This document shows positions 9,814 to 64,000 of a stretch of DNA of 64,000 bases, in pieces. The notes beneath the pieces were generated by a model that made no database searches, was not told where the DNA came from, and worked only from the letters and a program-made list of their open reading frames with translations. Numbering within the stretch: the first letter of the stretch is position 1; every line of letters begins with the position of its first letter. The DNA comes from an uncultured Legionellales bacterium (GTDB lineage Bacteria; Pseudomonadota; Gammaproteobacteria; Eutrophobiales; Eutrophobiaceae), in NCBI GenBank assembly GCA_913045195.1, contig CAJWQR010000002.1, positions 13,209-77,208 of the forward strand. Direction: 5' to 3'. Made by a program: the position numbers and the translations under genes.

Positions 9814-9839
9814 GCAATAAACAGACGTAAGTTTGTTAG

Positions 9840-9872
9840 ATCCCTGGTACTTCGGTATCAGGGATTTTTTTT
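9840..9872 (+). terminator. Rho-independent terminator after xoxF (11-bp stem with UUCG tetraloop plus T8)
   Basis: ATCCCTGGTAC-TTCG-GTATCAGGGAT followed by TTTTTTTT. Confidence 0.7.
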
Positions 9873-9982
9873 AGTGGTTTACGGTTTAATGTATTATTAT
9901 CAGAAAGTATTATTATAAAAAAATAATGAGAATATTTAGGTTCAATTAATAAGAACTTGTTCCAAATTATTAAGTCTTATAT

Positions 9983-10456
9983 ATGAAGATTAAAGGGGTG
10001 ATTGCAATGATAACAACACGATATATCGGAATAATTTTAAGCGCATTGGTGTATATGCTTCCAAATTTAGTTAATGCGGAAGAGCATATAGTGAATGCTG
10101 CTGCAAGAGAATTTAAGCCTGCTATTATTTATGTTCAGCCAGGCGATACTGTGAAATTTACTAATATGACCTCTCATAATTCTGTGACTTACTTAGTGCC
10201 TGAAGGCGGTACAGGTTGGGGTGAAAAAGGAAAAATGGCTGGCGGAACTTTCATAACACCAGCAATAGATGCAGAAGGTATTTATGGGTATGTTTGTGAA
10301 CCGCATATTGGTTTCGGAATGGTTGGGGTTGTCGTTGTTGGCGGTGTTAGTGCCGATGATAAAGCGGCAATGAAGGAAAGAGCGATGGCAGAGTTACAAG
10401 GCCCTTTTAAAAGACTTATTGGTAAAATTAATAAGATTAAACCGACATTAAAATAA
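9983..10456 (+). CDS. Pseudoazurin (type-1 blue copper protein / cupredoxin)
   Basis: Signal peptide. Contains PGDTVKF...SHN and GIYGYVCEPHIGFGMVGVVVVG, which give the Cu ligands His, Cys, His, Met with pseudoazurin spacing. Confidence 0.75.
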   Translation: MKIKGVIAMITTRYIGIILSALVYMLPNLVNAEEHIVNAAAREFKPAIIYVQPGDTVKFTNMTSHNSVTYLVPEGGTGWGEKGKMAGGTFITPAIDAEGIYGYVCEPHIGFGMVGVVVVGGVSADDKAAMKERAMAELQGPFKRLIGKINKIKPTLK

Positions 10457-10494
10457 TTCACTAATCTAAATTTTAGGATAATTATTAACCCACA

Positions 10495-12192: not shown

Positions 12193-15021
12193 CTATGACC
12201 CGTATAGATATTTAACATCCGACACTCTATTTCCCTTATTTTTATTATTAATCAAATCGCCTGGGCGTTGACCTTTTCGTAATTTTACAGCGCAGTATTT
12301 AAATTCTGGAATTTTTCCAATAGGGTCTAATGCTTCGTTTGTAAGCAGATTAGCCGCTGCCTCATTAAATGAAAATGGCATCATGACAACACCTTTTTGC
12401 ATGCCTTCATCTGCACGTGTTGTCGCTGCAATTTTTCCTCTTCGAGACTCAATGACAAGCATATCCCCAGATTTTAGTGAAAATAATTTAAGATCTTCAG
12501 GATTAATTAATATACATGGCCCTGGTTCGATAGCATCAAGCACTCGTGAATGACGAGTCATTGTTCCGGTGTGCCAATGTTCAAGCTGTCTTCCTGTGAT
12601 AAATACAAATGGGAAATCATTATTGGGAAGTTCAGCAGGTTCCGTGTAATCTGCAGCAATAAAACTTCCCTTTCCGTCTTGAGTTGGAAATATACCATCT
12701 TTAAAAATAATGGGTTCACCAGGGTCGCCAACATTGGTTAATGGGTAGGTGAGTGAGTCAACCTTTTCTAGTCTTTCCCAGGTAATTCCAGCCATACTTG
12801 GTGTCGCAACCCTTATCTCATTAAATACATCTTTTGTAGCCTTATAATTCCAATTAAGACCCATACGATTAGCAATTTCTTGAATGATCCATAAATCTTG
12901 TTTTGCCTCACCAGGTGGCTCAACAGCTTGCCTTCCTAATTGAACACGTCGATCAGTATTTGTAAACGTGCCATCTTTTTCAGGAAATGCAGAAGCAGGT
13001 AATATTACATCGGCATAACCACATGTTTCCGTAAAGAAGATATCTTGAACAACCATATGATCAAGTTTTGAGAGTGCATTTCTAGCGTGATTCAGATTAG
13101 GATCAGACATTGCTGGATTCTCACCCATGACATAAAGCCCATTAATATCTTTGTTGTAAATCGCGTGCATAATTTCCACAATTGTTTTTCCATTATTTGG
13201 GTCTAGTTTTTGACCCCAAAGTTTTTCAAATTTCTTTCTAATTGTAGAATCAGTAACAGGTTGGTAGTCGGGGTAGACCATAGGAATTAAACCTACATCA
13301 GACGCTCCTTGAACATTATTTTGTCCTCGTAAGGGATGTAGCCCCGTACTTTCACGACCAATTTGTCCGGTCATCAGCGCAAGTGAAATTAAACAGCGTG
13401 CATTATCAGTACCATGAATATGTTGGGATATACCCATACCCCAAAATATAATTGATGACCCTGATGTTGCATAAAGTCGAGCGACTTCCTTAATTACATT
13501 TACATCAATTCCACAAATCGGAGATACTTTTTCAGGTGAATAATTTTTAACTGTTTCAATAATTTTTTCAAAGCCATTGGTATGTTCATCAATGAATTTT
13601 TTATTGTGTAAGTTTTCATTGATAATAACGTGCATCATTGCATTTAGTAAAAGCACATCTGTGCCTGGTCGTAATTGTAAGAAATGACTTGAGTGCAGGG
13701 CAATATCAGAGTTATAGGGCTCAATAATAATAAGCTTGCTACCGCGTTCAGATGCATTTTTTAAAAATGTTGCAGCTACTGGATGATTTTCGTGCGGTCT
13801 TGCACCAATAACAATAATAACGTCAGCGTATGAACCGTCTGAAACTTGATTTGATACAGCCCCCGAGCCAATAGTTTCTAGCAAAGCAGCAACAGATGAA
13901 GCATGGCATAATCTTGTACAGTGATCGACGTTATTTGTTCCAAAACCTGATCTAACTAATTTCTGCACTAAATAAGCTTCTTCATTACTTCCTTTAGCAC
14001 AACCAAAACCCGCAAGAGATTGCGAGCTTTTATTATTTTTAATTTTATTAAAACCTTCAGCTGCAAAATTTAATGCTTCATCCCATGTTACCTCACGAAA
14101 AAACTTATGCATATTTTCACGCGTAACTAATTCGGATGTTTTTTTAGAATTTTCTCGCCTAATCATTGGTTTCTTTAAACGATCAGGGTGATGGATATAA
14201 TCAAATCCATAGCGTCCTTTAACGCATAATCGACTTTTATTCGCAGGACCATCTCTACCATCCACATATTGAATGCGATTATTTTTTATATTAAACGAGA
14301 GCAAGCAGCCAACACCACAATAAGGACAAACAGAATCAACTTTTTTATCAGTTTTGACCAAACCAACATTTTTTGCAGGCATTAGTGCACCTGTTGGACA
14401 GGCTTGGACGCATTCACCGCAGGCCACACAGGTACTTTCGCCCATAGGCGCATCCATATCAAAAACAATCTTTGAATGTTTGCCTCGAAAAGCATAACCA
14501 ATAACATCATTTACTTGTTCTTCACGGCATGCGCGTACGCAACGGGTACATTGAATACAGGCGTCGAGATTTACAGCAATTGCAGGATGTGACACATCAT
14601 TACGGATTTTCTCTCTTTCTTCGAAACGAGGATTGTAAAGGGAAAGTTTTTCTGCCCAGTGATCTAGCTCTGAATTAATTTTATAGGGTGACTTTCCTTG
14701 TTGTGGCATGTCTGAAAGCAGTAACTCTAATACCATTTTTTGAGATAAACGAGCTCTCTTATTTGCGCTATTAACCTTCATGCCTTCAGTTGGTTTTCGA
14801 CAGCATGATGGTGCTAGAACACGTTCACCTTCAATTTCAACAACACAGGCACGACAATTACCATCAGAGCGATATCCGTTCTTATAACAAAGATGAGGGA
14901 TTTCTACATTATTGCGTTTAGCAGCTTGGAGAATTGTTTCATCACCAAAAGAGGTGATTTCTTTATTGTCTAAACTAAAGCTTATTATTGTTTCGTTTTC
15001 TTGTTCTGGGTTGGCGGCCAC
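12193..15021 (-). CDS. fdsA: NAD-dependent formate dehydrogenase alpha subunit (molybdopterin, FdsA)
   Basis: 942 aa. N-terminal 2Fe-2S and 4Fe-4S NuoG-like domains (HLCY...CRACVVE; CIQCTRCVRAC). Then a molybdopterin oxidoreductase domain and a C-terminal MGD-binding domain. GTG start; overlaps fdsB by 37 nt. Confidence 0.9.
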   Translation of the reverse strand: MAANPEQENETIISFSLDNKEITSFGDETILQAAKRNNVEIPHLCYKNGYRSDGNCRACVVEIEGERVLAPSCCRKPTEGMKVNSANKRARLSQKMVLELLLSDMPQQGKSPYKINSELDHWAEKLSLYNPRFEEREKIRNDVSHPAIAVNLDACIQCTRCVRACREEQVNDVIGYAFRGKHSKIVFDMDAPMGESTCVACGECVQACPTGALMPAKNVGLVKTDKKVDSVCPYCGVGCLLSFNIKNNRIQYVDGRDGPANKSRLCVKGRYGFDYIHHPDRLKKPMIRRENSKKTSELVTRENMHKFFREVTWDEALNFAAEGFNKIKNNKSSQSLAGFGCAKGSNEEAYLVQKLVRSGFGTNNVDHCTRLCHASSVAALLETIGSGAVSNQVSDGSYADVIIVIGARPHENHPVAATFLKNASERGSKLIIIEPYNSDIALHSSHFLQLRPGTDVLLLNAMMHVIINENLHNKKFIDEHTNGFEKIIETVKNYSPEKVSPICGIDVNVIKEVARLYATSGSSIIFWGMGISQHIHGTDNARCLISLALMTGQIGRESTGLHPLRGQNNVQGASDVGLIPMVYPDYQPVTDSTIRKKFEKLWGQKLDPNNGKTIVEIMHAIYNKDINGLYVMGENPAMSDPNLNHARNALSKLDHMVVQDIFFTETCGYADVILPASAFPEKDGTFTNTDRRVQLGRQAVEPPGEAKQDLWIIQEIANRMGLNWNYKATKDVFNEIRVATPSMAGITWERLEKVDSLTYPLTNVGDPGEPIIFKDGIFPTQDGKGSFIAADYTEPAELPNNDFPFVFITGRQLEHWHTGTMTRHSRVLDAIEPGPCILINPEDLKLFSLKSGDMLVIESRRGKIAATTRADEGMQKGVVMMPFSFNEAAANLLTNEALDPIGKIPEFKYCAVKLRKGQRPGDLINNKNKGNRVSDVKYLYGS

Positions 15022-20418: not shown

Positions 20419-22062
20419 TTAACCTGTTTTAATAATTTCGTGATGATCATGTAAATAACGATCATCAACGGCATAATTGGAGAATTCAATCGAATAATAA
20501 CTTTCAAAGAAAGGTTTGAGGGTCTCTTCAATTTTATTATCATATTCTGGTGTTATGTGATAAACCTTACCTTTAGAATCAGTTTTAAATTCATGATTTT
20601 CAATCATTGTATTTCCAGATTTAATGACATAACGAGGTGTGCTGAACATCATTTCCTTGTCATCCATTACATCGTAGATTGTGATATCGGCATCAGCACC
20701 CACACCTAGGTGACCTTTTGTTTCTAGTCCTAAAGCTTTGGCAGGACCCGCTCTTGTAATAATTGCAATTTCATTTAATGTATATTCTCGTTTTAATTCG
20801 GGTAGTGAACACTTCAATAGGGCTTTTTGATTTACTCGCTTCATTTCTTCATGACGAAATTTTTCATCCATTAGGAGTTTAATAAGTTTAGGGTAGGCCA
20901 TAAAAGAACCACCATTCGGATGATCTGTTGATAAAATTATTCTCCAAGGATCTTCCGACAGTAAAAATAATTCCAATCCAATTGCCCATTGAAGCGTGTG
21001 CATATAAATATGTTCCTGATAGGCGAAAGGTAAAATTCCACAACCACTTTCACATTCTGTATCAGCGTTGACCCATTTACCTTTAGAGTGACCCCTTAGA
21101 AGATAGGCTAAGGGAGCATCGGCAGTCATAATTGTTGAGTTACCGAACATTACTTGCCCAACATCACAGGTGATATTTGGATGATTATTTACATACTCAG
21201 CAATTTCAGCAGCCTTTGAGATCGGATTTTTACCAAGCTCTCCCCCATAACTATGAAATTGAATATGGGCAATATGTGCACGTAGGTCGCCTGCTGTTTT
21301 CATAGTCTCAAGTGTTGTCTTATAATTGCCGCTGTGCCCAAGGTTATTACAATGGATGTGGGGCGGATGAGGGTAACCCTGTTTGTTTACGGTTTTTACA
21401 AAAGCTTCAATTATTTGTCGCGGTGATAAATCACCTGCTTCACCAGTTTTTTCATCAATATCAGATACATTGGAATTTCTTTCTCCTTTCCATGGTTCAT
21501 CACCGCCTGGGTTAACTAGTTTAACGGTATATGCTTTGGTAGCGCATACCCACCAAGCAACCGCTTGTTCGAATTCTTCCATGCGCTTCTCACGTATTAA
21601 ATTATGAAGAAAGATATTGTTCCCTAAAAGAACATAAAAGCCCTTATCAATAATTGGTGTGTCCTCGAATTCTTCTAATACATGGCGTGCACCAATTGGC
21701 GAGACAGCTGCTTCCATTGCCGTGGTGTATCCCAATGTTGCATAACGGTAACCCGCAGCAAATGTTGAAGGCGTTGTTCCACCGGAACCCGAACGGGTAA
21801 AAGGAGTTGATGGATGAACATCATGACGACGAGCTTCGGGCATTAATTTTCTAGCGAGATTGACCTTAGGTCCTGCAATATGGCAGTGAATATCAACACC
21901 ACCAGGCATAATAGCCATGCCTTTAGCATCAATAATTGTTGCTTCGTCTGATACAGAATCAACAATCTTTCCGTTTTCTATGCAAATTTCTTTTATTTCA
22001 CCGTTAATATTGTTTTTTGGATCGTATACTTCGCCATTAACGATGCGCATTGACGCAGACAT
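20419..22062 (-). CDS. fhcA: Formyltransferase/hydrolase complex subunit A (FwdA-like amidohydrolase)
   Basis: 547 aa metal-dependent amidohydrolase fold (GGVDIHCHIAGPKVN; HxH and downstream His/Asp ligands), the FwdA/FhcA family. Confidence 0.85.
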   Translation of the reverse strand: MSASMRIVNGEVYDPKNNINGEIKEICIENGKIVDSVSDEATIIDAKGMAIMPGGVDIHCHIAGPKVNLARKLMPEARRHDVHPSTPFTRSGSGGTTPSTFAAGYRYATLGYTTAMEAAVSPIGARHVLEEFEDTPIIDKGFYVLLGNNIFLHNLIREKRMEEFEQAVAWWVCATKAYTVKLVNPGGDEPWKGERNSNVSDIDEKTGEAGDLSPRQIIEAFVKTVNKQGYPHPPHIHCNNLGHSGNYKTTLETMKTAGDLRAHIAHIQFHSYGGELGKNPISKAAEIAEYVNNHPNITCDVGQVMFGNSTIMTADAPLAYLLRGHSKGKWVNADTECESGCGILPFAYQEHIYMHTLQWAIGLELFLLSEDPWRIILSTDHPNGGSFMAYPKLIKLLMDEKFRHEEMKRVNQKALLKCSLPELKREYTLNEIAIITRAGPAKALGLETKGHLGVGADADITIYDVMDDKEMMFSTPRYVIKSGNTMIENHEFKTDSKGKVYHITPEYDNKIEETLKPFFESYYSIEFSNYAVDDRYLHDHHEIIKTG

Positions 22063-35911: not shown

Positions 35912-38845
35912 TTACTGACATGCTTCACAGTCAGGATCGATAATTGAGCAAGCTTTTTGCCCATTTTCAAACTCATTATTTATTTCTTCTTTAGTATTAT
36001 TTGCGTTTTTTTCCATATGTGTTGCGCCCAATGAGCGTAAGTAATAAGTTGTTTTCAAACCGCGGACCCAGGCAAGCTTGTAAAGGTTGTCTAATTTTTT
36101 ACCGCTAGGCTCAGCCATATAAAGATTTAATGATTGCCCCTGATCGATCCATTTTTGTCTTCGAGCTGCGGATTCAACCAACCATCGCGGATCGATTTCA
36201 AATGCTGTGGCATATATTTCTTTTAATTCATCAGGTATCCGATCAATTTCTTGGACACTGCCATCGAAGTACTTGAGATCATTAACCATGACCTCATCCC
36301 AAACTCCTCGCTCTTTAAGATCTCTTACAAGATAGGGGTTAACAACCGTAAATTCTCCGGAAAGATTAGATTTTACGAATAGGTTTTGGTATGTAGGTTC
36401 TATTGATTGGCTAACACCACAGATATTTGAGATTGTTGCTGTTGGCGCAATTGCCATACAGTTTGAATTACGCATACCTGTTTTGATTACACGATCTCGT
36501 AAGTCATCCCAATCCATCGTAGTGTCGTAATTAACTTGCAGGTAATCTCCACGCTCATCCCCTAATATACGTAATGAATCGATTGGCAGAATTCCCTGAC
36601 TCCATAACGAGCCATTATATGTTGAGTAGACACCTCTTTCTTCGGCTAAGTTAGTTGATGCTTTAATAGCAAAATAACTTATTGTCTCCATGCTCGTGTC
36701 TGCAAAGCTAACCGCTTCCAGAGAAGTATAGGGCAAGCGTAATTTATATAAACTATCCTGAAAACCCATAACACCAAGCCCAACAGGTCTATGCCGTAGA
36801 TTAGAGCGTCTTGCTTTAGCAACACTATAATAATTGTAGTCAATTACGTTATCTAACATTCGCATTGCAGTGTTGATCGTTTTTTCTAGTTTTTCTAAAT
36901 TTAAACCTTCATTATTTAGATGCTTAGGAAGATTAATCGATCCTAAATTACAAACAGCAATTTCATCTTCCGACGTATTTAACGTTATTTCGGTACAAAG
37001 ATTTGATGAGTGAACTACACCAGCATGTGATTGAGGGGAACGAATATTACAAGGGTCCTTAAATGTTATCCATGGGTGGCCTGTCTCAAATAACATCGAT
37101 AGCATTTTACGCCATAACTCAACAGCCTGAATAATTTTGAAATTTTTAATACTACCATCAGTAGTTTTGTGCTCATATTCAGAATAACGTTGTTCAAATT
37201 TATCGCCGTAAAGATCATGGAGATCACTAGTTTCGTGGGGCGAGAATAATGTCCATTGACCATCCTCAGCAACACGTTTCATGAAAAGATCTGGTATCCA
37301 ATTAGCAGTATTCATGTCGTGGGTACGTCGTCGTTCATCACCAGTGTTCTTTCGTAAATCTAGAAATTCTTCAATATCTAGGTGCCAAGTTTCAAGGTAA
37401 GCGCACATTGCGCCTTTACGTTTTCCGCCTTGATTCACAGCCACGGCAGTATCATTTGCTACTTTAAGAAAAGGGACAACACCTTGAGATTTCCCGTTAG
37501 TGCCTTTTATATGAGTTCCTAAAGCACGAACTGGTGTCCAGTCATTACCTAATCCTCCAGCAAATTTAGATAACAAAGCATCATCTTTGATAGCTGAAAA
37601 AATACCATCAAGATCATCTGGGACGGTTGTTAGGTAGCAGCTTGATAATTGTGGACGACGAGTGCCAGAATTAAATAATGTAGGAGTTGAGCTCATGAAA
37701 TTAAATGATGAAAGTAATTCATAGAATTCTATAGCGCGTCGATTGCGATCTAACTCATTGATAGCTAAACCCATAGCAACACGCATAAAAAAAGCCTGCG
37801 GTAACTCAAAACGAATATCCGTCGAATGAATAAAGTAACGGTCATAAAGTGTCTGTAAACCAAGATAGGTAAATTGTCGATCCCCATCGGGATTTAGTGC
37901 TTTACTTAGACGATTTAAATCATATTTTGTTAACTCTCGATCGAGTAGTTCTAATTCTGCGCCGCGCTCAATATATTTTTGAAAATAATCTTGGTAACGC
38001 TCTTTCATTTCCTTTTGAGTTGCTTGTGTTTTCTCACCCTCAATAAAAGTCAAGGCTTCTTGACGTAATTGATCCATTAACAAACCCGCTGCCACATAAC
38101 TATAGTCCGGATCTTGCTCGATCAATGTTCTGGCGCTCATCACTAATGCTTTCGCAACATCTATTTCATCAATACCATCAAATAGGTTATTTTGTATTTC
38201 TTTAATAACAGCTTTTGTTTCAACCCCAGGAAAACCTTCGCAGGCTTCTGTAACTATTAAATTTAAACGCGCCATGTCTAATGGTCTTTTCGCGCCATCT
38301 ACTCGAGTCACACTTAAGTTAAGGGGGTCAGTTTTCTCCTGATTCTCTAAATTTATTTTTGTATCAGCAGCACGTTCCCGTGATCTTTCTTCACGATATA
38401 GCACATATGCTCTAGCTACTTTCTGCTCACCATTACGCATCAAGGCGAGTTCAACCTGATCTTGGATGTCTTCGATGTGCAAAGTCCCGCCATCTGGCAT
38501 GCGACGTGTAAATGCATTTAAAACAAGTTCGGTAAGTGATTCAACAGCCTGGTGTATACGGGTAGAGGCAGCTGCAGTGCCGCCTTCAACGCTAATAAAA
38601 GCTTTGGTTAGGGCAATTGAGATTTTACTGGTGTCAAACGCTGTGACCTTCCCGTTACGGCGAATGATTTGGTAGTTGTTGAGCTGACTTGATAAAAATT
38701 CTTTTTGAACGTGATCAGCTGCAGTTTTTGCAAAAATTTCTTCTTGGGAAACTAGGTCTTCTTTACTGTCATTTTTGATCGCATCTTCTAATTCACTGAT
38801 TGCAGACTCAATATCCGTTGTTGCTTCAGTTGTTTCTGCTCCCAT
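35912..38845 (-). CDS. nrdA: Ribonucleotide reductase class Ia alpha subunit (duplicated N-terminal ATP-cone)
   Basis: 977 aa with N-terminal ATP-cone repeats, the active-site Cys/Asn/Glu region (SNLCTEI) and a C-terminal CxxC redox tail (CEAC). Confidence 0.9.
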   Translation of the reverse strand: MGAETTEATTDIESAISELEDAIKNDSKEDLVSQEEIFAKTAADHVQKEFLSSQLNNYQIIRRNGKVTAFDTSKISIALTKAFISVEGGTAAASTRIHQAVESLTELVLNAFTRRMPDGGTLHIEDIQDQVELALMRNGEQKVARAYVLYREERSRERAADTKINLENQEKTDPLNLSVTRVDGAKRPLDMARLNLIVTEACEGFPGVETKAVIKEIQNNLFDGIDEIDVAKALVMSARTLIEQDPDYSYVAAGLLMDQLRQEALTFIEGEKTQATQKEMKERYQDYFQKYIERGAELELLDRELTKYDLNRLSKALNPDGDRQFTYLGLQTLYDRYFIHSTDIRFELPQAFFMRVAMGLAINELDRNRRAIEFYELLSSFNFMSSTPTLFNSGTRRPQLSSCYLTTVPDDLDGIFSAIKDDALLSKFAGGLGNDWTPVRALGTHIKGTNGKSQGVVPFLKVANDTAVAVNQGGKRKGAMCAYLETWHLDIEEFLDLRKNTGDERRRTHDMNTANWIPDLFMKRVAEDGQWTLFSPHETSDLHDLYGDKFEQRYSEYEHKTTDGSIKNFKIIQAVELWRKMLSMLFETGHPWITFKDPCNIRSPQSHAGVVHSSNLCTEITLNTSEDEIAVCNLGSINLPKHLNNEGLNLEKLEKTINTAMRMLDNVIDYNYYSVAKARRSNLRHRPVGLGVMGFQDSLYKLRLPYTSLEAVSFADTSMETISYFAIKASTNLAEERGVYSTYNGSLWSQGILPIDSLRILGDERGDYLQVNYDTTMDWDDLRDRVIKTGMRNSNCMAIAPTATISNICGVSQSIEPTYQNLFVKSNLSGEFTVVNPYLVRDLKERGVWDEVMVNDLKYFDGSVQEIDRIPDELKEIYATAFEIDPRWLVESAARRQKWIDQGQSLNLYMAEPSGKKLDNLYKLAWVRGLKTTYYLRSLGATHMEKNANNTKEEINNEFENGQKACSIIDPDCEACQ

Positions 38846-51330: not shown

Positions 51331-52005
51331 TTAACTTAATCGTATTCTCAAAGCAGCAGCGGTTGCTAATGGCGCTAAGGTGATTGTTAGTACAAGTATA
51401 CCGGCTAGAAAATAGACCTCGGCAATCATGGATTGGTTTGATGCTGCATTTTGTATTGCAACTGTAGAAAAAATAAGAACAGGCATTGATAAAGGCAGAA
51501 TCAAAAGATTAAGTAGCATACCACCACGTAAACCAATTGTTAAGGCAACCATAACAGATCCAAGGAGACTTAAGATTGGCGTTCCAAGAATCAATGTAAT
51601 GAAAAGCGCCATTATTATTTCATTTGATAATGAAAGAAGTATACCCATCAGTAATGAAATTATTATTAGAGGTATACCAAATGTTATCCAATGTGCAAAT
51701 ATTTTTGCCGACACAAGTAATGTAAGAGGATAGCGAGATAAAGTTAGTTGCTCGATGCTGCCGTCTTCAAAATCAGAACGAAAAATCGTTTCAAGCGTTA
51801 GACAGGTTGCTAATAAAGCGCTAATCCAGATCATTCCAGGTATTATTTCATTTACTATTGTTGATTTTGTGCCGAAGGATAATGGGAATAGCGTAATGAC
51901 AATAATAAAAAAAAATAATGAATTAATAAAATCTGTTTTATCTCGAAAAGCGAGAATTAGATCACGCCTTAAAATAACATTAAAAATATTTATATATTCA
52001 GACAT
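51331..52005 (-). CDS. ccmB: Haem exporter permease CcmB
   Basis: 224 aa, 6-TM ABC-2-type permease. Position in the operon. Confidence 0.8.
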   Translation of the reverse strand: MSEYINIFNVILRRDLILAFRDKTDFINSLFFFIIVITLFPLSFGTKSTIVNEIIPGMIWISALLATCLTLETIFRSDFEDGSIEQLTLSRYPLTLLVSAKIFAHWITFGIPLIIISLLMGILLSLSNEIIMALFITLILGTPILSLLGSVMVALTIGLRGGMLLNLLILPLSMPVLIFSTVAIQNAASNQSMIAEVYFLAGILVLTITLAPLATAAALRIRLS

Positions 52006-52627
52006 TATTATTTCCTAGATTAATGCTTTGTAATGGACGACCATTAATTTCCATTCTTTGGTGCGTAGTAAAGATAGTTATCCCACCATTATCGCAATGA
52101 CTAATAATTAAATTTTCAATTATTTTTTTTCCTTCTTTATCTAATGCATTAAACGGTTCATCAAGGAACCATAATTTTGACTTTGCCATAAATAATCTTA
52201 TAAGTCCTAAACGTCTTTTTTGTCCAGCAGACATATTGTATGCAAATATTTTGTTCATGCCCGACATACCAATTTTTTTAAGAATTGCAGAATAATTAAT
52301 TTTTGATTTTGATCCTGTTAAAGAATGAATAATTGTCATATTTTCTTCTACAGTTAACGTTGCTTTTATGGCATTAGCATGACCAATATATAAAATATTA
52401 CTTTGGAACTCATAACGCTGTTGATTAATATTTATATTATTCCATAATACTTCACCAGTGGTTATCTGTATTAGTCCAGCACAAATCTGTAATAAACTAC
52501 TTTTTCCACTGCCGTTTGCACCGTTAATCTGAAGTAACGCGCCATCTTCCATAGTCAGGCTCAGCCCTTTAAATAGAATATTATTTTGGCGGACGCATTC
52601 AAGATTATTGATACTAAATTTCGACAT
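51998..52627 (-). CDS. ccmA: Haem exporter ATP-binding protein CcmA
   Basis: 209 aa ABC ATPase with Walker A GANGSGKSSLL, the signature LSAGQKRR and Walker B LWFLDEP. Confidence 0.85.
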   Translation of the reverse strand: MSKFSINNLECVRQNNILFKGLSLTMEDGALLQINGANGSGKSSLLQICAGLIQITTGEVLWNNININQQRYEFQSNILYIGHANAIKATLTVEENMTIIHSLTGSKSKINYSAILKKIGMSGMNKIFAYNMSAGQKRRLGLIRLFMAKSKLWFLDEPFNALDKEGKKIIENLIISHCDNGGITIFTTHQRMEINGRPLQSINLGNNNV

Positions 52628-54504: not shown

Positions 54505-57500
54505 TTAATTATTATCTGGGGTATAACCGAGATTCGGAGAAAGCCATTTTTCGATGCTTTTTAAATTTAATCTTTTTCTTTGTGCATAGTTTTTAATTTG
54601 GTCACGGTTAATTTTTCCTAATCCAAAATATCTAGAATCAGGATGTGAAAAATACCATCCTGATACAGCGGCCGTTGGATGCATCGCAAATGACTCAGTA
54701 AGTTTTATTCCTGTATTTTCTTCAACGTCTATTAATTTCCATAGTAGTTCTTTTTCGGTGTGATCAGGACATGCTGGGTACCCTGGGGCAGGACGAATAC
54801 CCTTGTAAGATTCACTGATTAATTTCTCATGACTAAGTGATTCGTTGGGAGCGTACCCCCAATATTCTTTGCGAACCAATTCATGTAATCGTTCAGCAAA
54901 AGCTTCAGCGAAACGATCTGCCAACGCCTTTAGCATTATTGAGCTATAATCATCATGGTCATTTTCAAACTGTTTTATACGTTCTTCCATACTAAAACCA
55001 GCTGCAACAGCGAATGCGCCAATGTAATCATTCTTTTTGGTTTCTTTTGGAGCAATAAAATCGGCTAGAGCAAAATTACATTGTCCAGGTGGTTTTTGGG
55101 TTTGCTGTCTCAGAGAATGTATTGTAGTTAATAGATTATTTCTTTTTTCATTAGTATAGATTTCAATATCATCATAATTTACCGAATTTGCTGGAAATAA
55201 ACCGTAGACGCCTTTAGCAGTAAACCATTTTTCATTGATAATTTTTGATAACATAATTTGAGCATCATCATAAAGACGAGTAGCTTCTAGACCGACTATT
55301 TTATTGCTTAATATTTTTGGAAATTTTCCCGCAAGTTCCCATGCAACAAAAAATGGTGTCCAGTCGATATATTCTACTAACGCATTTAGTGGGTAATCAT
55401 GAAAAGCATTAATACCAAGTCTATTTGGTGTTATTGGCGAATAATCAGGCCATGTAATTTTTTTATGATTATTACGAGCTTCTTCGATTGTTAGCCAATT
55501 TATTTTAGCTTGTTTTCCTTTATGACGTTCCCGTAATATATTGTATTCCGATTGTATTTCTTTTGAGTAAGATTTTTTCATATCGGTATTAAGTAATTTT
55601 GTTGAAACACCAACAGCACGTGAAGCATCTTTTACATGAACGACAAGATAATCATAGTCAGGATCGATTTTAACGGCAGTGTGAGTTCTTGACGTAGTAG
55701 CCCCGCCAATCATTAACGGAATTTGGAATTCCTGGCGTTTCATTTCTTTTGCCACATGAACCATCTCATCAAGCGACGGAGTAATTAAACCACTTAAACC
55801 AATAATGTCTGCATTTTGCTCACGCGCAGTATCTAAAATTTTTTGTGCTGGCACCATAACCCCGAGGTCAATGATTTCATAATTATTACATTGCAATACA
55901 ACCCCAACTATATTCTTACCGATATCGTGCACATCACCTTTTACTGTCGCTAATACAATTTTGCCGTTACTTTTAATTTTTTCTCCACCTTTCTCAGCTT
56001 CAATAAAAGGGATGAGATAACCAACCGCTTTTTTCATTACACGCGCACTTTTCACCACTTGCGGTAAAAACATTTTACCGGCACCAAATAAATCACCCAC
56101 AACATTCATTCCATCCATTAATGGCCCTTCAATTACCTCAATTGGTTTTTTCACTTGTTTTCGTGCTTCTTCCGTATCTTCTACTATGTAATCCGTAATT
56201 CCTTTTACTAAAGCATGAATTAATCTTTTAGTAACCGTATCTTCACGCCATCTAGTATTCGTCTTCCTTTGTTTTGCTTTTCCAGTTGTTACTGTTTCAG
56301 CAAAGTCAACTAAGCGTTCAGTTGAATCATCACGACGATTTAATACAACATCTTCAATGTATTCGAGTAATTCTGTTGGTATTTCATCATATATACCCAA
56401 CTGACCAGCATTTACAATCCCCATATCCATACCTGATTGAATGCCATGGAATAAAAAAGCTGTATGCATTGCTTCACGAACAGGATTATTTCCACGAAAT
56501 GAAAATGACACATTACTTAGCCCCCCACTAACTAACGCATAGGGCAAATGTTTTTTTATCATTCGTGTTGCCTCAAAAAATGAAACCGCATAGTTGTTGT
56601 GTTCTTCCATGCCGGTAGCAATAGTTAAAATATTTGGATCAAAGATAATGTCTTCCGGTGGAAAGTTAACTTTATTTACTAAGATATTATATGAGCGCTT
56701 GCAAACCTCAAATCGTCTTTCAGTTGTATCTGCCTGACCTTTTTCATCGAATGCCATCACAACGGTTGCAGCACCGTAGCGTTTTACTAGTTTTGCATGC
56801 TTAATGAATACTTCTTCACCTTCTTTTAGACTTATTGAATTAACAATTCCTTTGCCTTGTATACATTGCAACCCAGCTTCAATTACACTCCATTTTGAAG
56901 AGTCAATCATAATTGGTACTCGACTAATATCAGGTTCTGAGCTAATTAATTTTAAAAAGTCAGCCATTAGGTGCTCTGATTCAAGCATACCTTCATCCAT
57001 ACAGATATCGATAATTTGCGCACCATTCTCAACTTGTTGACGTGCAATATCGAGGGCGGCCTCCATGTTCTCGTCTTCTTTAATTAATTTTAGAAATTTT
57101 GGAGAGCCAGCAACATTTGTTCTTTCTCCAATATTGATAAAATTAACATTACTTGTGATATTAAATGCCTCAAGACCACTTAATCGTTGCGAAATTTGCA
57201 CATTTGGGGGTTTTCTGGGGTTAATTCTTCCGACAGTCCCAGATATTTTTCTTATGTGATCCGGTGTAGTACCACAGCACCCGCCAACAATATTTAAGAA
57301 TCCTGAATTAGCCCATTCCTCAATATGTTTTGCCATTGAATCGGCATCCAAATCATATTCGCCAAACTCATTTGGTAGTCCAGCATTAGGATGGGCGCTT
57401 ATAAAGCAACTTGAAAAGCTAGAAAGCTCTTCAATATATTGACGTAAGTCATTAGGACCTAAGGCACAATTAAGTCCAACTGAAAGAGGTTTTGCGTGCT

Positions 57501-58203
57501 TAACTGAATTCCAAAAAGCTTCTGTAGTTTGGCCTGTTAGTGTACGCCCAGAAGCATCAGTTATTGTGCCTGAAATCATAATGGGGAGATTAATACTATT
57601 TTTTTCAAAATATTCGTCAATAGCAAATAATGCAGCCTTTGCATTCAACGTATCAAAAATAGTTTCCACTAAAATCAAATCGGCTTGACCATCAATAAGT
57701 CCTTTTAACGCCTCTGTGTATGTTGAAACAAGTTCCTCGAAATTTATATTTCGGTAGCCTGGATTATTAACATCTGGAGATATTGAGCAAGTTCGGTTTG
57801 TTGGACCAAGAACTCCTGCCACAAAGCGAGGTTTTGCATCATTTTCTTCGAAGTCATCAGCGACATATCGGGCTAGGGCAGCACCCTGCTTATTTAACTC
57901 GTAGACTAAATCTTCCATTTGGTAGTCAGCCATAGCAATAGAAGTAGAATTAAATGTATTGGTTTCTACAATGTCTGCACCGGCTTCAAAATATGCGCTA
58001 TGAATTGCTTTGATAATATCTGGCTGTGTTACTGAGAGCAGGTCATTATTGCCCTTTAAATCACATGGGTGTTTTTTAAATCGTTCTCCACGATAGTCTG
58101 CTTCTTCTAATTTGTAAGACTGTATCATTGTACCCATCGCACCGTCTAAAACTAGAATTCGCTCATTCATAAGCTCTTTTATTTGTTTAGATTTATTAAC
58201 CAT
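54505..58203 (-). CDS. metH: Cobalamin-dependent methionine synthase
   Basis: 1232 aa. Homocysteine-binding, pterin-binding, B12-binding (DxHxx[11 protein letters not shown]) and AdoMet-activation domains in canonical order. Confidence 0.92.
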
Positions 58204-58375
58204 GGTTTTTTATAATTTGATTTATCTTGATTTTAGTTGAGCTGCAATAGGATATCAGTTTCAAACATGAACTGTTAAGAGTTGTCTCATTTGGATATTT
58301 GTTGATACCGCGCTACGACAACACCATAACTGAGAAGTGCGGCTAAAGAAATTTTATTTTACTAGCTATTCAGGG

Positions 58376-58639
58376 TTATTCGACAATTGCGTGTGAGCTT
58401 TTTGGCCTAAGCGCAAACCAACCAATATAACCAACAGGCCAAGCAATCAGTGCTATTATTATACCCTTGGTTAACGCTAGTGCTGCCGCAATTACAAATA
58501 TAAGAGGCAGGATAGTTCCCTTTATTCCCATATCTCGGGTAGCTGCGTCACCATATATCCACAATATACTGCAGACGTAAACCGAACAAAGAATTATAAA
58601 AATAAAAACTTCTGTTGAATTGCCAAATGAAATAGACAC
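58376..58639 (-). CDS. Small two/three-TM membrane protein downstream of the MFS transporter
   Basis: 87-aa hydrophobic ORF, 17 bp downstream of and co-oriented with the OFA transporter. Confidence 0.4.
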   Translation of the reverse strand: MSISFGNSTEVFIFIILCSVYVCSILWIYGDAATRDMGIKGTILPLIFVIAAALALTKGIIIALIAWPVGYIGWFALRPKSSHAIVE

Positions 58640-58656
58640 GTAAATCTCCTTAGAAG

Positions 58657-60342
58657 TTATTCTTTCATATGATGTTTAGCATCAACAGGACGCATTGTTG
58701 CGTTCATTATTAATGCCACAAATAGGACTACCGCCATTAAATACATTGTCGTATTGTAGAGCCCCGAAGTTGGATCGACAGTGCCCGAAGGCGCTATTTC
58801 CATTAATTTATTTATGGTTACTGTTTTTGCAGTAACTAACTGGTCAAGCTGATTTACACCTGCTCCGAATTTTTCTTGAAATGTAGCTGGGTCAATTTTT
58901 CCCACCAGATCATCAATTGCATTTTTAACTGATATTTCTCTTAGGGATGTTATGGCAAGCGGCCCAAAAACTCCAGCGCTTGCCCATGCGGTTAATAGTC
59001 GACCATGTATACCGCCAACATACTTAGTGCCAAAAATATCAGCGAGATATGCAGGTATTGTAGCAAAACCGCCACCGTACATAGTGAATATCAGCATGGT
59101 TGCAGCGTAAAAATAAACTAACCAGACAACGCTAGGATTTACGCTGACTTGTTGTGCTGTATAGGGTATTGAGCAGTACAAAATAATCCCTAGTGTAAAA
59201 AATATCCAATAGGTATTTCTACGTCCAAGATAGTCAGAGGAGCTTGCCCAGAAGATACGACCGATCATATTGAAAAGGCTAATCATTAATACATAAGTTG
59301 ATGCAAAGGCAGCATCCACAATATGGGGGAGGGTGCTACCAAAAATCTCACTCATCATTGTTTTAGCTACACCTAAAACACCGATACCTGCCGTTACGTT
59401 AAAACATAAAATGACCCATAATTGATAAAATTGACGAGTTTTTAATGCCTCATCGATATGCACATGATGTTGAGTAATCATACTTTTCTGTTTATCTTCG
59501 GTTGGTGGTTCCCATCCTGCGGGCTTCCACCCTTCACGTGGAATACGATAACCAAATGCGGCACACAACATAATAACGAAGTAGATAGCGCCCAATGTAA
59601 AGAAAGCCTGAGCAACACCAACAGTGCCTGTACCAACAAGGTAGACTCCTTCAGGTCCGGGGGCATACATACCAGCCAGATCATTAGCTCCAACCACAAC
59701 AACTTCTCGTAGTTCTCCAGCAATTTCAACAAGACGTCTACCGCTCTCTGTAATTAATTCAACAGCATCAACAGCACCAAGATATTCTGGAGCTTTGTAA
59801 TATATTTTAATAAATGGCTCGATCATAAATTTAGCTATCATGGCGCCACCACCAAAACCCATAATAGCGATCCCCGTTGCCATTCCACGTCTGTCAGGAA
59901 ACCATCTGATTAGTGTTCCAACTGGCGAAACATAACCAAGCCCCAGCCCACAACCTCCAATCACACCGTAACCAAGGTACAATAACCAAAGTTCCCCGGT
60001 TAATATACCTATACCCCCAACAATAAAACCACCACCCCAACAAATGGCAGACACAGTTCCAACCATGCGAGGACCAACTTTTTCAAGCCATTTACCCCCA
60101 ACGGCGGCAGATAATCCGAGGAATACAATTGCAACAGTAAAAATCCAAACGACACTTTTTAATGTCCAATCATCAGCGGCGCTTGTGACAACACCAAGAC
60201 GTTTTATTAATGCAGGATTAAATAGGCTCCAGGCGTAAACAGAGCCTATACATAAATGAATGCCTAATGCAGCAGGGGCAATCAACCAACGATTGAAGCC
60301 TTCTTTGGCTACGATATGCTTTTTTGACAAAATATCTAGCAT
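58657..60342 (-). CDS. MFS transporter, oxalate/formate antiporter (OFA) family, with large central loop insertion
   Basis: 561 aa with 12 predicted TM segments and OFA-like N-terminal motifs (RWLIAPAALGIHLCIGSVYAWS). There is an insertion of about 130 aa between the two 6-TM halves. Confidence 0.7.
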   Translation of the reverse strand: MLDILSKKHIVAKEGFNRWLIAPAALGIHLCIGSVYAWSLFNPALIKRLGVVTSAADDWTLKSVVWIFTVAIVFLGLSAAVGGKWLEKVGPRMVGTVSAICWGGGFIVGGIGILTGELWLLYLGYGVIGGCGLGLGYVSPVGTLIRWFPDRRGMATGIAIMGFGGGAMIAKFMIEPFIKIYYKAPEYLGAVDAVELITESGRRLVEIAGELREVVVVGANDLAGMYAPGPEGVYLVGTGTVGVAQAFFTLGAIYFVIMLCAAFGYRIPREGWKPAGWEPPTEDKQKSMITQHHVHIDEALKTRQFYQLWVILCFNVTAGIGVLGVAKTMMSEIFGSTLPHIVDAAFASTYVLMISLFNMIGRIFWASSSDYLGRRNTYWIFFTLGIILYCSIPYTAQQVSVNPSVVWLVYFYAATMLIFTMYGGGFATIPAYLADIFGTKYVGGIHGRLLTAWASAGVFGPLAITSLREISVKNAIDDLVGKIDPATFQEKFGAGVNQLDQLVTAKTVTINKLMEIAPSGTVDPTSGLYNTTMYLMAVVLFVALIMNATMRPVDAKHHMKE

Positions 60343-60490
60343 GGCTAGAGAACCCCCTAAAAAATATATTGAAGATTTTTATTATTTATTATGTTTTTTT
60401 GAATCAGTTCTAATTGTTGTATATTAAATGACCGAGAAAGCACTTTATTTGATTGGAGATAGGATAAACAGTATTATCATTAATTGAAAG

Positions 60491-60700
60491 CACTAGGTGC
60501 CAACTGTTTTTTTAAATATGACAGTTGTGTTAAACGGGAAGTCAGTCAAATCCTGACGCTGCCCCCGCAACGGTAGACGAGTTAAAAATCATTCAAAATG
60601 TCACTGTACTAGTTGAAGTAAGAGAGTATGGGAAGACGAATGATTTATGTAAAACATACTCGTAAGCCCGGAGACCGGCCTTAAATTTCAGAAAAAACAT
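60491..60700 (+). promoter_or_regulatory. Cobalamin (B12) riboswitch
   Basis: AAACGGGAAGTCAGTCAAATCCTGACGCTGCCCCCGCAACGGTAGAC matches the conserved core (GGGAA...AAaTCC...GCnGnCCCCGCnAC.GTA). AAGCCCGGAGACCGGCC matches the B12 box (AGCCAGGAGACCTGCC) with compensatory changes. It sits in the 5' leader of a TonB-dependent receptor. Confidence 0.75.
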
Positions 60701-60837
60701 TCTGCGGGCGGCAGTATGGGATCTACTTATAAATTCTAGCAATAGACAATAGATTCAATACCTACCAGATTCTACTTATACCCGCATTAAATATCTACTT
60801 AACATTACACGGGCGGTGTATAGGAGAAGTTTTAAAC

Positions 60838-62907
60838 ATGTCGTCTCCAAGTTATTTTGTTTTATTTATATTCGTATATTTTATTTCTTATAATACTTTT
60901 GCTGTGAATCTAAAACGATTTGAAGGGTTGATTGTCAATGGTACAAGATTAAATCAAAATAATATTGAGGATTTACCATTAAATATTTCCATTATAACCG
61001 CTGAAGAAATTAAATTAAGTTCAGCACAAACACTCCCCGAGTTACTTTCACAGGAACCAGGTATTCAGAAAAGTAGTCAATTTGGTAATCATGCCGTTAG
61101 AAGCGATATTGACATTCGGGGGTTTGGAGCAAGAGGCACTCAAAATACGTTAATTTTATTGGATGGCAAACGTCTTAACGATAATGATCAATCGACAATT
61201 AATTTTAGTGCCATACCGATGGAGAATATTGAGAGAATAGAGATTATAAAAAGTGCAGGCGGTGTGCTCTACGGCGATGGCGCAGTAGGTGGCGCTATTA
61301 ATATCATTACCAAAACACCATCTTATAAAACTAAGAAATATTTAATTGAGCAAAGAGTGGGTTCGTACGATTCAATCAAGACAGATGTGGCAGCTGAATA
61401 CAGTAACGAGAAAATTTCACTTAATCTCTTTAGTAATCTTATTCATTCAGATGGTTATCGAGTTAATAATAAATTAGAGCAACGGTCTTTATCTACAAAT
61501 TTCAGTTATTTTATTAGCAATACAGAAATATTTCTAAAATTTGGAATATCTGAGCAAAATTTAAGACTTCCTGGTGATAGGGCGGTTAATTTTGTTACAG
61601 GTGTAGATGAATTTTCTTCTGATAGGAAAGGAACAGATGACCCGTTTGATTTTGCTATCGAAGTGGGATCTTTCTTAACGTTAGGCTTCATACATTCTTT
61701 TGCAGATAATATCGAATTACTAGTAGATGGCGGATATAAAACCAAAGAAAGCGATATTTTTGTAGAGAATAGCCAAGAATTTCGAAATACAAATCATGCA
61801 AATCTATATTTTAGCCCCCAGCTAAAATGGAAATTTGACTTATTTCATAGTGAACACAATATTGATATAGGCTTTGATCTTTACCATTATCAGTTTGATT
61901 TAGATATCGAAAATACCACCGCAGCTGATACAAATCATGTGATAGTTCAACCACAGCATAGACTTGATATCGAACAGGAAAACTATTCATTTTATTTAAA
62001 TGATTTTGTCAATATAAACCCTAACACTTCATTCCAGGTAGGAGCTCGTATACAACATAGCAATGTAGATGCATTTGATCAGTTTGATTCGACTGCTAGA
62101 ACTGCTGGTTTCGCGAGCAGCCAAAGGCCTTCACTTAATAAATCGGACAAAGGGTATATGGCTAACTTTGGAATTAAACAGCGGTTTAATCGAAATATTT
62201 CTGGCTATGTAACAACAGGTCAAAGTATGCGTTTTGCAAATAATGATGATTTTAATCAATTAGACGCAACTTTTGCGCCTAGTTTTTCTAATATAAAACC
62301 ACAGCGCGGCAGATATTTTGATGGTGGGGTTATATATTCTAGCGAATATCTTAATACTTCGCTGAGCGTATATTTAATGGAAATGACAAATCAAATTGAT
62401 TTTGATCCAGCACGTTCTACAAATAGAAATTTTGAACCAATTAAAAGAGAGGGGCTAGAGTATAGTATTTTACTTAAACCCACTGACGAAATTACAACAA
62501 ATTTTAATTATGCCTTAACTAAAGCAGTTTTTGATGAAGGATTAAATAAAGGCAATGACGTTCCACTTGTTGCGAAACATACAGCAAATTTTATTTTTAA
62601 TTATAATCTGTTTAGGAGTATGAATTTATCGGCAACATGGAATTATGTTGGAGATAAAGTTTTTGATAATGATCAGGATAATACATTTTTTGCCAAAATT
62701 CCTTCGCACTCGTCCATTGATATGAAATTGGGTTATGAGCGAGGTAATTTTGATGTAAATTTTTCAGTTAACAATTTGTTAAATAAAGAATATTTCGAGA
62801 CCGGAACCACTAATAGCCTGCTTTTTGATACCGCACATACGCGATTTAATGCATCACCCATGCCAGAGAGAAACTTTTCATTTACAATACGATATAAGTT
62901 TGACTAA
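60838..62907 (+). CDS. TonB-dependent outer-membrane receptor (BtuB-like, B12-riboswitch controlled)
   Basis: 689 aa with a signal peptide, a TonB-box / plug domain (DLPLNISIITAEEI) and a 22-strand barrel ending in the terminal aromatic ...IRYKFD. Confidence 0.8.
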   Translation: MSSPSYFVLFIFVYFISYNTFAVNLKRFEGLIVNGTRLNQNNIEDLPLNISIITAEEIKLSSAQTLPELLSQEPGIQKSSQFGNHAVRSDIDIRGFGARGTQNTLILLDGKRLNDNDQSTINFSAIPMENIERIEIIKSAGGVLYGDGAVGGAINIITKTPSYKTKKYLIEQRVGSYDSIKTDVAAEYSNEKISLNLFSNLIHSDGYRVNNKLEQRSLSTNFSYFISNTEIFLKFGISEQNLRLPGDRAVNFVTGVDEFSSDRKGTDDPFDFAIEVGSFLTLGFIHSFADNIELLVDGGYKTKESDIFVENSQEFRNTNHANLYFSPQLKWKFDLFHSEHNIDIGFDLYHYQFDLDIENTTAADTNHVIVQPQHRLDIEQENYSFYLNDFVNINPNTSFQVGARIQHSNVDAFDQFDSTARTAGFASSQRPSLNKSDKGYMANFGIKQRFNRNISGYVTTGQSMRFANNDDFNQLDATFAPSFSNIKPQRGRYFDGGVIYSSEYLNTSLSVYLMEMTNQIDFDPARSTNRNFEPIKREGLEYSILLKPTDEITTNFNYALTKAVFDEGLNKGNDVPLVAKHTANFIFNYNLFRSMNLSATWNYVGDKVFDNDQDNTFFAKIPSHSSIDMKLGYERGNFDVNFSVNNLLNKEYFETGTTNSLLFDTAHTRFNASPMPERNFSFTIRYKFD

Positions 62908-62935
62908 ATAGGCATATTACTCGGAGTTTAGAATT

Positions 62936-63487
62936 ATGTTTAACCAAAATATAAAAGTAGATAAGAATATTACGATCATTTTAAGTTTGATTTTATTTGC
63001 TATTGTCTTAAGGTTACTTCCTCATCCGCCAAATTTCTCACCTATAGGCGCAATTGGTTTATTTGCCGGATGCTATCTAAGTTTAAAAAGATTCTGGTTA
63101 ATACCTATTGCTGCGCTATTTGTTAGTGATTTTGTACTGGGTTTTTATCATCCAATTTCAATGCTTAGTGTTTATTTTTCCTTTGGGATATCGGCACTAT
63201 TGGGTAGCTTTTTTTTAAAAGATAAAATAACACCATTCAGAATTACTGGGACTGCAATTTTCTCCGCTACACAATTTTTTATTCTCAGTAATTTAGGTGT
63301 TTGGATTTCAGGATTAATTTACCCAATAAATATTACGGGTCTTATTAGTTGCTATGTAATGGCAATTCCATTTTATGGAAATACACTATTAAGCGAGCTC
63401 TTTTATGCATTTATTCTTTTTGCAACTTATTATTTTCTAACTAATTTTGTCAAAAAGGGTAATACACATAATACAAAAAGTATTTAG
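62936..63487 (+). CDS. Small polytopic inner-membrane protein, candidate BtuM / ECF-S-component-like cobalamin transporter
   Basis: 183 aa with about 6 TM segments and conserved-looking His30 / Cys46 (LLPHPPNF...GLFAGCY). It lies between the riboswitch-controlled TonB receptor and the pduO-type adenosyltransferase. Confidence 0.45.
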   Translation: MFNQNIKVDKNITIILSLILFAIVLRLLPHPPNFSPIGAIGLFAGCYLSLKRFWLIPIAALFVSDFVLGFYHPISMLSVYFSFGISALLGSFFLKDKITPFRITGTAIFSATQFFILSNLGVWISGLIYPINITGLISCYVMAIPFYGNTLLSELFYAFILFATYYFLTNFVKKGNTHNTKSI

Positions 63488-63565: not shown

Positions 63566-64000
63566 ATGTCTAATCGTTTAACAAAAATTTATACACGTAC
63601 TGGCGATGATGGAACGACGGGGCTCGCGAATTCCAATCGAATTGATAAGTTCAGCACACGAATAGAAGCCATGGGTGAGATAGATGAGCTTAATAGTCTA
63701 ATCGGTGTTCTTGTGGCGAATGAACTACCTAACGATATTTCAGGGTATTTATTAAATATTCAACATAGATTGTTTGATGTTGGCGCAGAATTGGCAATAC
63801 CGGGAAATGCTTTAATATCGCCAGATTGCGTAAAAAGATTAGAAGATTTAATTGATTCTTATAACAATGAACTTCCAGTACTTAAGGAATTTGTTTTACC
63901 TGGAGGTTCGATGCCTGCCTCGCTATGTCACCTCAGTAGAACAGTTTGTCGTCGCGCCGAAAGGACGCTTGTTAAATTAGCACGAAACGAATCTTTTAAT
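63566..64000 (+). CDS. PduO-type ATP:cob(I)alamin adenosyltransferase (3' end beyond window)
   Basis: MSNRLTKIYTRTGDDGTTGL...EAMGEIDELNS matches the canonical PduO/MMAB N-terminus. Confidence 0.85.
   Translation, partial: MSNRLTKIYTRTGDDGTTGLANSNRIDKFSTRIEAMGEIDELNSLIGVLVANELPNDISGYLLNIQHRLFDVGAELAIPGNALISPDCVKRLEDLIDSYNNELPVLKEFVLPGGSMPASLCHLSRTVCRRAERTLVKLARNESFN

Follow-up and report, generated by a model that had tools for sequence, protein, structure and literature searches.

A DUF6580 membrane protein in a cobalamin-riboswitch operon of a Legionellales bacterium is a candidate inner-membrane corrinoid importer

A stretch of 64,000 nucleotides from an uncultured Legionellales bacterium (assembly GCA_913045195.1, contig CAJWQR010000002.1; the window) was analysed, with the focus on its distal end, where a cobalamin (vitamin B12) riboswitch precedes genes for a TonB-dependent receptor, a small membrane protein of Pfam family DUF6580 and a PduO-type ATP:cob(I)alamin adenosyltransferase. 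A preliminary description, made from the letters alone, had proposed a riboswitch-controlled B12 salvage module beginning at 60491, a position that lies inside the aptamer found here: a covariance-model scan (cmscan) matched Rfam RF00174 to 60478–60697 (+) at 93.7 bits, where the gathering score is 31.5 (E 5.2e-22, model positions 1–189 of 189), the sole above-threshold Rfam match in the whole window. The predicted gene order was borne out by open reading frames (ORFs) and Pfam domains. The 689-amino-acid (aa) receptor (60838–62907, +) carries a plug domain (PF07715, E 1.5e-25) and a barrel domain (TonB_dep_Rec_b-barrel, PF00593, E 1.7e-29) and is followed after a gap of 28 nucleotides (nt) by the 183-aa DUF6580 protein (62936–63487, +), and then, after 78 nt in which no terminator was predicted, by the adenosyltransferase (63566–64000, +, cut by the window end), which matches Cob_adeno_trans (PF01923) with 158.5 bits against a threshold of 24 (E 2.1e-46, profile positions 1–145 of 171). 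The B12-dependent methionine synthase MetH (54505–58203, −) lies outside the operon on the opposite strand, with its start 2.3 kb from the riboswitch (2.5 kb in the preliminary description) and with five Pfam domains in the order S-methyl_trans, Pterin_bind, B12-binding_2, B12-binding and Met_synt_B12, the activation domain. As had also been noticed, the locus holds no parts of an ATP-binding cassette (ABC) transporter such as BtuCDF, be it binding protein, permease or ATPase; a single ABC ATPase turned up in the window (51998–52627), beside CcmB in a ccm cluster, and no ATPase of the energy-coupling factor (ECF) type was seen within these 64 kb. Riboswitch, receptor, PduO and MetH are ordinary, and the notable element of the locus is DUF6580.

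The leader has the layout seen in related loci, with the aptamer on the same strand as the B12-related gene that follows. Here 140 nt separate the aptamer end from the receptor start codon at 60838, and the aptamer is near-invariant across four related loci in a leader alignment. This interval, the putative expression platform (60698–60837, +), contains conserved elements and a Shine-Dalgarno sequence: CTGCGGGCGGC at 60702–60712, ACCCGC at 60780–60785 and CGGGCGG at 60810–60816 are all kept in related loci L001–L003, and the Shine-Dalgarno GGAG (60823–60826) lies shortly 3′ of the CGGGCGG element. In the minimum-free-energy fold the GGAG region is paired with upstream sequence, with a z-score of −1.08 against shuffles that is not significant. 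A scan of the plus strand of the leader found no terminator-like hairpins, which leaves transcription attenuation unsupported and suggests translational control of the first gene, as in btuB-type leaders. A consensus scan placed a promoter-like site, TTGATT-17 nt-TATTAT, at 60449–60477 (+), ending one base 5′ of the aptamer, with both hexamers kept in the leaders of L001–L004; since shuffled sequences give such sites as often as this region does, the site alone is weak evidence.

The receptor is not an equivalog of BtuB, as it reached 107.5 bits against a cut-off of 599.7 for TIGR01779 and 92.2 against 836 bits for NF007926. Its matches in the Protein Data Bank (PDB) fall mostly in the plug domain, where siderophore receptors outscore BtuB, and the match to BtuB itself is limited to residues 31–209. 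Because of the riboswitch and the gene context, the receptor nonetheless appears to take up corrinoids.

The 183-aa protein matches DUF6580 (PF20221) with 153 bits against a threshold of 27 (E 1.1e-44, profile positions 4–157 of 162), and a search of NCBIfam with it returned no model. The family is large: at 50% identity its clusters number 6,643 at E ≤1e-3 and 4,903 at E ≤1e-10, and nearly all of 150 listed representatives are 167–241 aa long (one has 337 aa); a tblastn search against plasmids gave no DUF6580 match. Neither publications nor databases yielded a functional assignment for the family, literature searches for related predictions returned nothing relevant, and the names of relatives in public sources are uninformative or mistaken. 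One DUF6580 protein (P0028) is named ‘predicted membrane-bound dolichyl-phosphate-mannose-protein mannosyltransferase’ in one source, probably a mis-annotation via weak similarity among membrane proteins.

Sequence comparison suggests a place for DUF6580 at the edge of a known transporter superfamily. Searches of all PDB chains for BtuM, the solitary B12 transporter to which the preliminary description had likened the protein, returned no BtuM chain at E ≤10, either with phmmer and the protein itself or with hmmsearch and a 50-sequence family profile. The top PDB match of the profile, at a non-significant E of 0.95, was a 182-residue chain of 6FNP that falls in PF12822, an ECF S-component family. 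An hhalign comparison of DUF6580 with CbrT-like proteins gave a marginal link (E 1.7e-4, probability 49%, 109 columns) in which the loop-1 motif R..PN..P and the motif S[DN]..GF, ahead of loop 3, were aligned, and PF12822 directly matched 2 of 50 DUF6580 members (best E 1e-4), the window protein not being among them. Because of this profile–profile link to CbrT and the two direct matches, DUF6580 probably belongs, as a remote relative, to the S-component superfamily.

Structure prediction points the same way and singles out BtuM. An AlphaFold2 model of the protein, built from the 50-sequence alignment, has six helices, in agreement with the six transmembrane segments counted earlier (predicted local distance difference test score 91.1, predicted template-modelling score 0.85). 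When the model was compared with the PDB by Foldseek, the BtuM entries 8c7p and 8ovv ranked first (template-modelling scores 0.66/0.68, probability 1.0), followed by FolT, ThiT, PanT and RibU, and BtuM also clearly outscored the S-component CbiM. The predicted fold of DUF6580 is thus that of an ECF S-component and is most like BtuM. The BtuM or S-component type proposed in the preliminary description therefore holds for the modelled fold but not for the sequence family: DUF6580 is not a member of the BtuM family, since there is neither a sequence match nor a counterpart of the invariant BtuM cysteine, Cys80.

The conserved polar residues of DUF6580 lie where a substrate would be expected to bind. 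Lysine and arginine residues outside the helices, read from the sequence with helix boundaries from the model, are confined to the two termini and the loops that follow helices 2 and 4; the positive-inside rule would thus put loops 1, 3 and 5 on the periplasmic side. Across 81 homologues, Arg26, Pro29, His30, Asn33, Phe34, Pro36, Pro57, Asp65, Gly69, Tyr80, Gly90, Asn119, Trp123, Tyr129, Gly135 and Pro145 are invariant or nearly so, and the invariant polar residues among them cluster in loops 1, 3 and 5 or at adjoining helix ends, the same periplasmic-side region in which S-components and BtuM bind their substrates (PMC6072759). A histidine and a cysteine near the first hairpin had been thought to be conserved; this is right for His30 in loop 1, which is kept in 98% of homologues, but not for Cys46, which is alanine, valine or serine in most of them. 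Loop 3 (residues 69–72) has no cysteine.

Comparative genomics ties the family to B12 well beyond the window. In a scan of one genome per species, at least 577 loci were found to encode a DUF6580 relative, and the best 80 were kept for locus counts. These span Gammaproteobacteria (including metagenome-assembled genomes (MAGs) labelled Legionellales), Alphaproteobacteria, Ignavibacteria/Chlorobi, Bacteroidota, Binatia, Acidobacteriota, Actinomycetes, Armatimonadota and several Patescibacteria; the nearest relatives of the window locus carry the label Gammaproteobacteria. A cobalamin riboswitch lies upstream on the same strand in 42 of the 80, of which 20 were identified by Rfam (9 of 13 loci picked across the taxonomy, and 11 of 15 further loci picked for a weak or missing nhmmer hit, most of them with B12-related neighbours) and 22 by nhmmer with a profile of confirmed aptamers, with E ≤6e-8 for the added hits. 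Locus L008, whose first nhmmer match (E 7e-7) was unconfirmed by Rfam, was left out of the count. The Chitinophagaceae loci L040 (5808-6731) and L066 (3070-3992) each carry two cobalamin riboswitches in tandem operons: one ends 57 nt (L040) or 107 nt (L066) 5′ of the DUF6580 gene itself, and the other stands directly before a downstream TonB receptor, so that DUF6580 is here regulated in its own right. Two Binatia loci (L027:2268-3840, and L028) show two serial Rfam cobalamin matches upstream of the receptor (66 and 49.8 bits), the second of them partial (model positions 45–169), which may represent a tandem or a degenerate riboswitch.

Gene neighbours, counted by clustering all ORFs with Pfam checks (clusters c3, c10, c20, c21, c27 and c28 were ignored as antisense artefacts of high-GC DNA), give a concordant picture. 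About 50 of the 80 loci carry B12 genes, that is, the receptor, PduO or CobO, MetH, an NrdJ-like reductase or transcobalamin-like binders. A homologous receptor is present in 38 loci, and in 36 of the 80 it immediately precedes DUF6580 on the same strand, at a median distance of 44 nt; PduO occurs in 15, in 14 of them downstream of DUF6580 on the same strand; nine loci have a CobO/BtuR-type adenosyltransferase; and MetH homologues are found in 22 of the 80, directly downstream of DUF6580 in Ignavibacteria. DUF4430 proteins occur in 12 loci, proteins with the transcobalamin-like architecture of alpha-toroid plus DUF4430 in seven, DUF5074 lipoproteins in six, and a class II ribonucleotide-reductase-like protein, identified by sequence reading alone, in five loci labelled Patescibacteria. 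No cob/cbi biosynthesis genes appear among the conserved neighbour clusters. Over the 80 species, the homologous gene is thus associated with cobalamin riboswitches and B12 genes.

Three gene orders recur. The gammaproteobacterial one, to which the window belongs, runs riboswitch, receptor, DUF6580 and PduO, with a Dph6-like and a leaderless BtuF-like protein before PduO in some loci, both absent from the window; the ignavibacterial one is riboswitch, DUF5074, receptor, DUF6580 and MetH; and that of Patescibacteria-labelled loci is class II reductase-like, CobO, riboswitch, DUF4430 and DUF6580 (L024, L046, L053, L060 and L061; for example L053:785-6500). Patescibacteria are assumed to lack an outer membrane. 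With neither an ABC transporter nor a TonB-dependent receptor in the locus, the Patescibacteria-labelled unit looks like a minimal B12 acquisition set. The leaderless BtuF-like protein of the gammaproteobacterial relatives is a presumably cytoplasmic Peripla_BP_2 protein of about 308 aa that starts MRIVSLLPSATE and has no signal peptide; it lies between DUF6580 and PduO in ten loci (L006, L007, L009, L010, L011, L015, L023, L050, L052 and L068; for example L011:6492-8090) and is often accompanied by the Dph6-like protein, an ATP pyrophosphatase (PF01902).

We interpret the region as one riboswitch-controlled operon for B12 scavenging in which DUF6580 acts as a BtuM-like inner-membrane corrinoid importer and adenosylation serves as the trap, a reading to which we assign a probability of roughly 0.65. 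The predicted fold and the gene context together suggest that DUF6580 binds and transports corrinoids. When coenzyme B12 is plentiful, it would bind the leader RNA, and the switch would probably hide the ribosome-binding site of the first gene; when B12 is scarce, the TonB-dependent receptor would bring corrinoid across the outer membrane. DUF6580 would then bind it in a periplasmic-face pocket lined by residues that are invariant in the family (Arg26, His30 and Asn33 of loop 1, with Asp65 and Gly69 at loop 3 and Asn119, Trp123 and Tyr129 at loop 5) and move it across the inner membrane, probably by toppling as proposed for BtuM, with His30 a candidate for a functional role and the protein presumably independent of an ECF ATPase module. 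PduO would convert the imported corrinoid to adenosylcobalamin, which would both trap it in the cell and make the ligand of the riboswitch, closing the feedback loop, and MetH would be the local consumer of the cofactor. Its presence in B12 loci across many phyla makes DUF6580 a probable, hitherto overlooked family of B12 importers of the inner membrane. The more specific proposition, that DUF6580 is a large family of solitary S-component-type corrinoid importers distinct from BtuM, with a loop-1 histidine instead of a cysteine at the cobalt, which supplies the inner-membrane B12 transporter in many lineages without BtuCDF (from marine Gammaproteobacteria and Ignavibacteria to genome-reduced Patescibacteria), we hold to be evenly poised between true and false.

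An alternative interpretation is that DUF6580 is a conventional B12 S-component like CbrT, which would need an ECF module (EcfA, EcfA′ and EcfT) encoded elsewhere in the genome. Group II S-components are usually encoded apart from their ECF module, and this alternative also accommodates the predicted S-component fold, the fact that the only detectable sequence links go to PF12822, the family of CbrT, and the labelling of many DUF6580 hosts as Patescibacteria or Actinomycetes. We nevertheless consider it unlikely. An ABC-ATPase-like ORF with Walker A and LSGGQ motifs occurs within 6 kb of DUF6580 in only 5 of 81 loci, in none of the 81 does an ABC ATPase pair adjoin DUF6580 within that distance, and the one ABC ATPase of the window belongs to the ccm cluster. 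Moreover, BtuM, the nearest structural match, works without an ECF module, for which toppling of the lone S-component has been proposed, and such a module is missing from Escherichia coli, Thiobacillus denitrificans and nearly all BtuM hosts, which are mostly Proteobacteria (PMC6072759); the nearest relatives of the window locus are labelled Gammaproteobacteria.

It is less probable still that DUF6580 is a membrane-bound accessory that handles corrinoids (a decyanase, a reductase or a hand-over protein) beside another transporter such as BtuCDF. This possibility is raised by loci in which both kinds of system meet. In L068, from Thalassomonas sp. M1454, a second cobalamin riboswitch (10961–11122, 60.1 bits) heads a complete btuCDF-type operon (7454–11122, −), in the order btuD-btuC-cobO-btuF, whose products are an ABC ATPase, a FecCD permease, CobO and a BtuF-like Peripla_BP_2 protein with a signal peptide, and which converges on the operon of riboswitch, receptor and DUF6580; in L051, from Brevundimonas, an ABC ATPase and a FecCD-like permease adjoin DUF6580. 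The leaderless BtuF-like protein downstream of DUF6580 in ten loci would also suit an accessory role, as would the finding that BtuM itself chemically modifies its substrate (PMC6072759). Against it, DUF6580 is the sole polytopic membrane protein of the riboswitch-controlled operon in loci of the window type and in Patescibacteria-labelled loci, and its predicted fold is that of transporter S-components. Redundant B12 uptake systems within one genome have been reported for Bacteroides, and the coexistence in L068 is compatible with such redundancy, although it may also reflect an accessory role. Finally, transport of a B12-related compound other than a corrinoid, namely cobalt or a lower-ligand precursor (dimethylbenzimidazole or alpha-ribazole), is very improbable: cobalamin riboswitches also govern transporters of this sort, such as the S-components CbiM and CblT, and a CobC-like histidine phosphatase, identified by reading its sequence, lies beside DUF6580 in L035 and L043, but the conserved neighbours, from the TonB receptor, the DUF4430 and transcobalamin-like binders and the adenosyltransferases to MetH and the class II reductase-like protein, handle complete corrinoids, conserved cob/cbi neighbours are lacking and BtuM is well above CbiM in the structure scores.

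Several observations weigh against import of corrinoids by DUF6580 and call for caution. DUF6580 and a BtuCDF-type system are found in the same genome at least once, in L068, which means that DUF6580 is not just a stand-in for BtuCDF. Some 30 of the 80 loci (in Bacteroidales, Eisenbacteria, Brevundimonas and others) have no riboswitch or B12 neighbour, and their proteins show the same conserved residues. There is no sequence match to BtuM, and no cysteine column is invariant among the 81 homologues, the best being Cys139 at 78%. The receptor resembles BtuB no further than a generic plug domain, and the expression platform does not fold more stably than shuffled sequences. The absence of an ECF module and of btuCDF genes holds for the 64-kb window, and literature searches on DUF6580 and PF20221 found no experiment on any DUF6580 protein.

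The surroundings of the operon offer some additional observations. A class I ribonucleotide reductase large subunit with an ATP cone is encoded at 35912–38845 (−); this enzyme is B12-independent, so that MetH is the only B12-dependent enzyme seen in the window. Divergent from the riboswitch (58376–60342, −) lie genes for a 561-aa transporter of the major facilitator superfamily, which scores near the cut-offs of the L-lactate and oxalate/formate families, and for an 87-aa membrane protein without a family, a pair that 11 related loci keep in the same place. On the metH side, past the conserved 87-aa ORF, three relatives have an S-adenosylhomocysteine riboswitch on the minus strand (L004:1248-1326, L011:1404-1477 and L008:1376-1456); none was detected at 58100–58700 of the window, even at E ≤1. 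The window, at 35.8% G+C, resembles part of a methylotroph genome: its positions 7876–34448 include genes for a pyrroloquinoline-quinone-dependent dehydrogenase (7876–9813), a formate dehydrogenase alpha subunit (12193–15021) and an Fhc-like amidohydrolase (20419–22062), and, going by gene order and the list of ORFs alone, tetrahydromethanopterin-pathway genes up to about 34 kb.

The communities of marine and candidate-phyla-radiation bacteria are believed to be shaped by B12 cross-feeding. DUF6580 is spread over many phyla, marine MAGs and candidate-phyla-radiation bacteria among them, whereas BtuM is confined to a small range of organisms, chiefly Proteobacteria. No more than about half of B12-auxotrophic bacteria are predicted to have BtuCDF, and for the remainder the inner-membrane transporters are mostly unidentified (PMC6072759). 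If DUF6580 does take up B12, its assignment would improve predictions of auxotrophy and cross-feeding from metagenomes, it would constitute a second, chemically different lone S-component transporter that dispenses with a cysteine ligand, and complementation of E. coli would provide a simple test system.

Compared with known systems, the window locus shares with E. coli BtuB–BtuCDF the cobalamin riboswitch ahead of a gene for a TonB-dependent receptor, in its leader, and the proposed sequence of inner-membrane uptake followed by adenosylation, but its receptor is not a BtuB equivalog and it lacks the periplasmic binding protein, permease and ATPase. CbrT (PF12822), the S-component of the ECF-CbrT vitamin B12 transporter of PDB entry 6FNP, has the same fold class and the same inferred substrate as DUF6580, yet it needs an EcfAA′T module (PMC5997447), none of which is found near DUF6580 in the 81 loci; furthermore, the CbrT-like homologues recovered here have source names of the Lactobacillus or Bacillus type, whereas DUF6580 stands in an operon with a TonB receptor. 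The closest likeness is to BtuM (BtuM_Td of T. denitrificans; PDB 6FFV, 8C7P and 8OVV), whose small six-helix inner-membrane S-component fold is also predicted for DUF6580 and whose gene likewise lies near a riboswitch-controlled TonB-dependent receptor and an adenosyltransferase, with no ATPase in the locus (PMC6072759). The two differ in sequence, with no detectable similarity and 16–17% identity in structural alignments, and in their conserved residues: Cys80 in loop 3 of BtuM, which is invariant, ligates cobalt and is essential (PMC6072759), has no counterpart in DUF6580, which instead has the near-invariant His30 in loop 1. They also differ in the accompanying adenosyltransferase, which is PduO here and the non-homologous BtuR for BtuM, whose co-localization with btuM genes led to the proposal of metabolic trapping (PMC6072759). 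The evidence from fold prediction and gene context thus points to DUF6580 as a second family of BtuM-like B12 transporters, one that would do without the cysteine chemistry of BtuM and whose taxonomic spread is far wider than the mostly proteobacterial list of BtuM.

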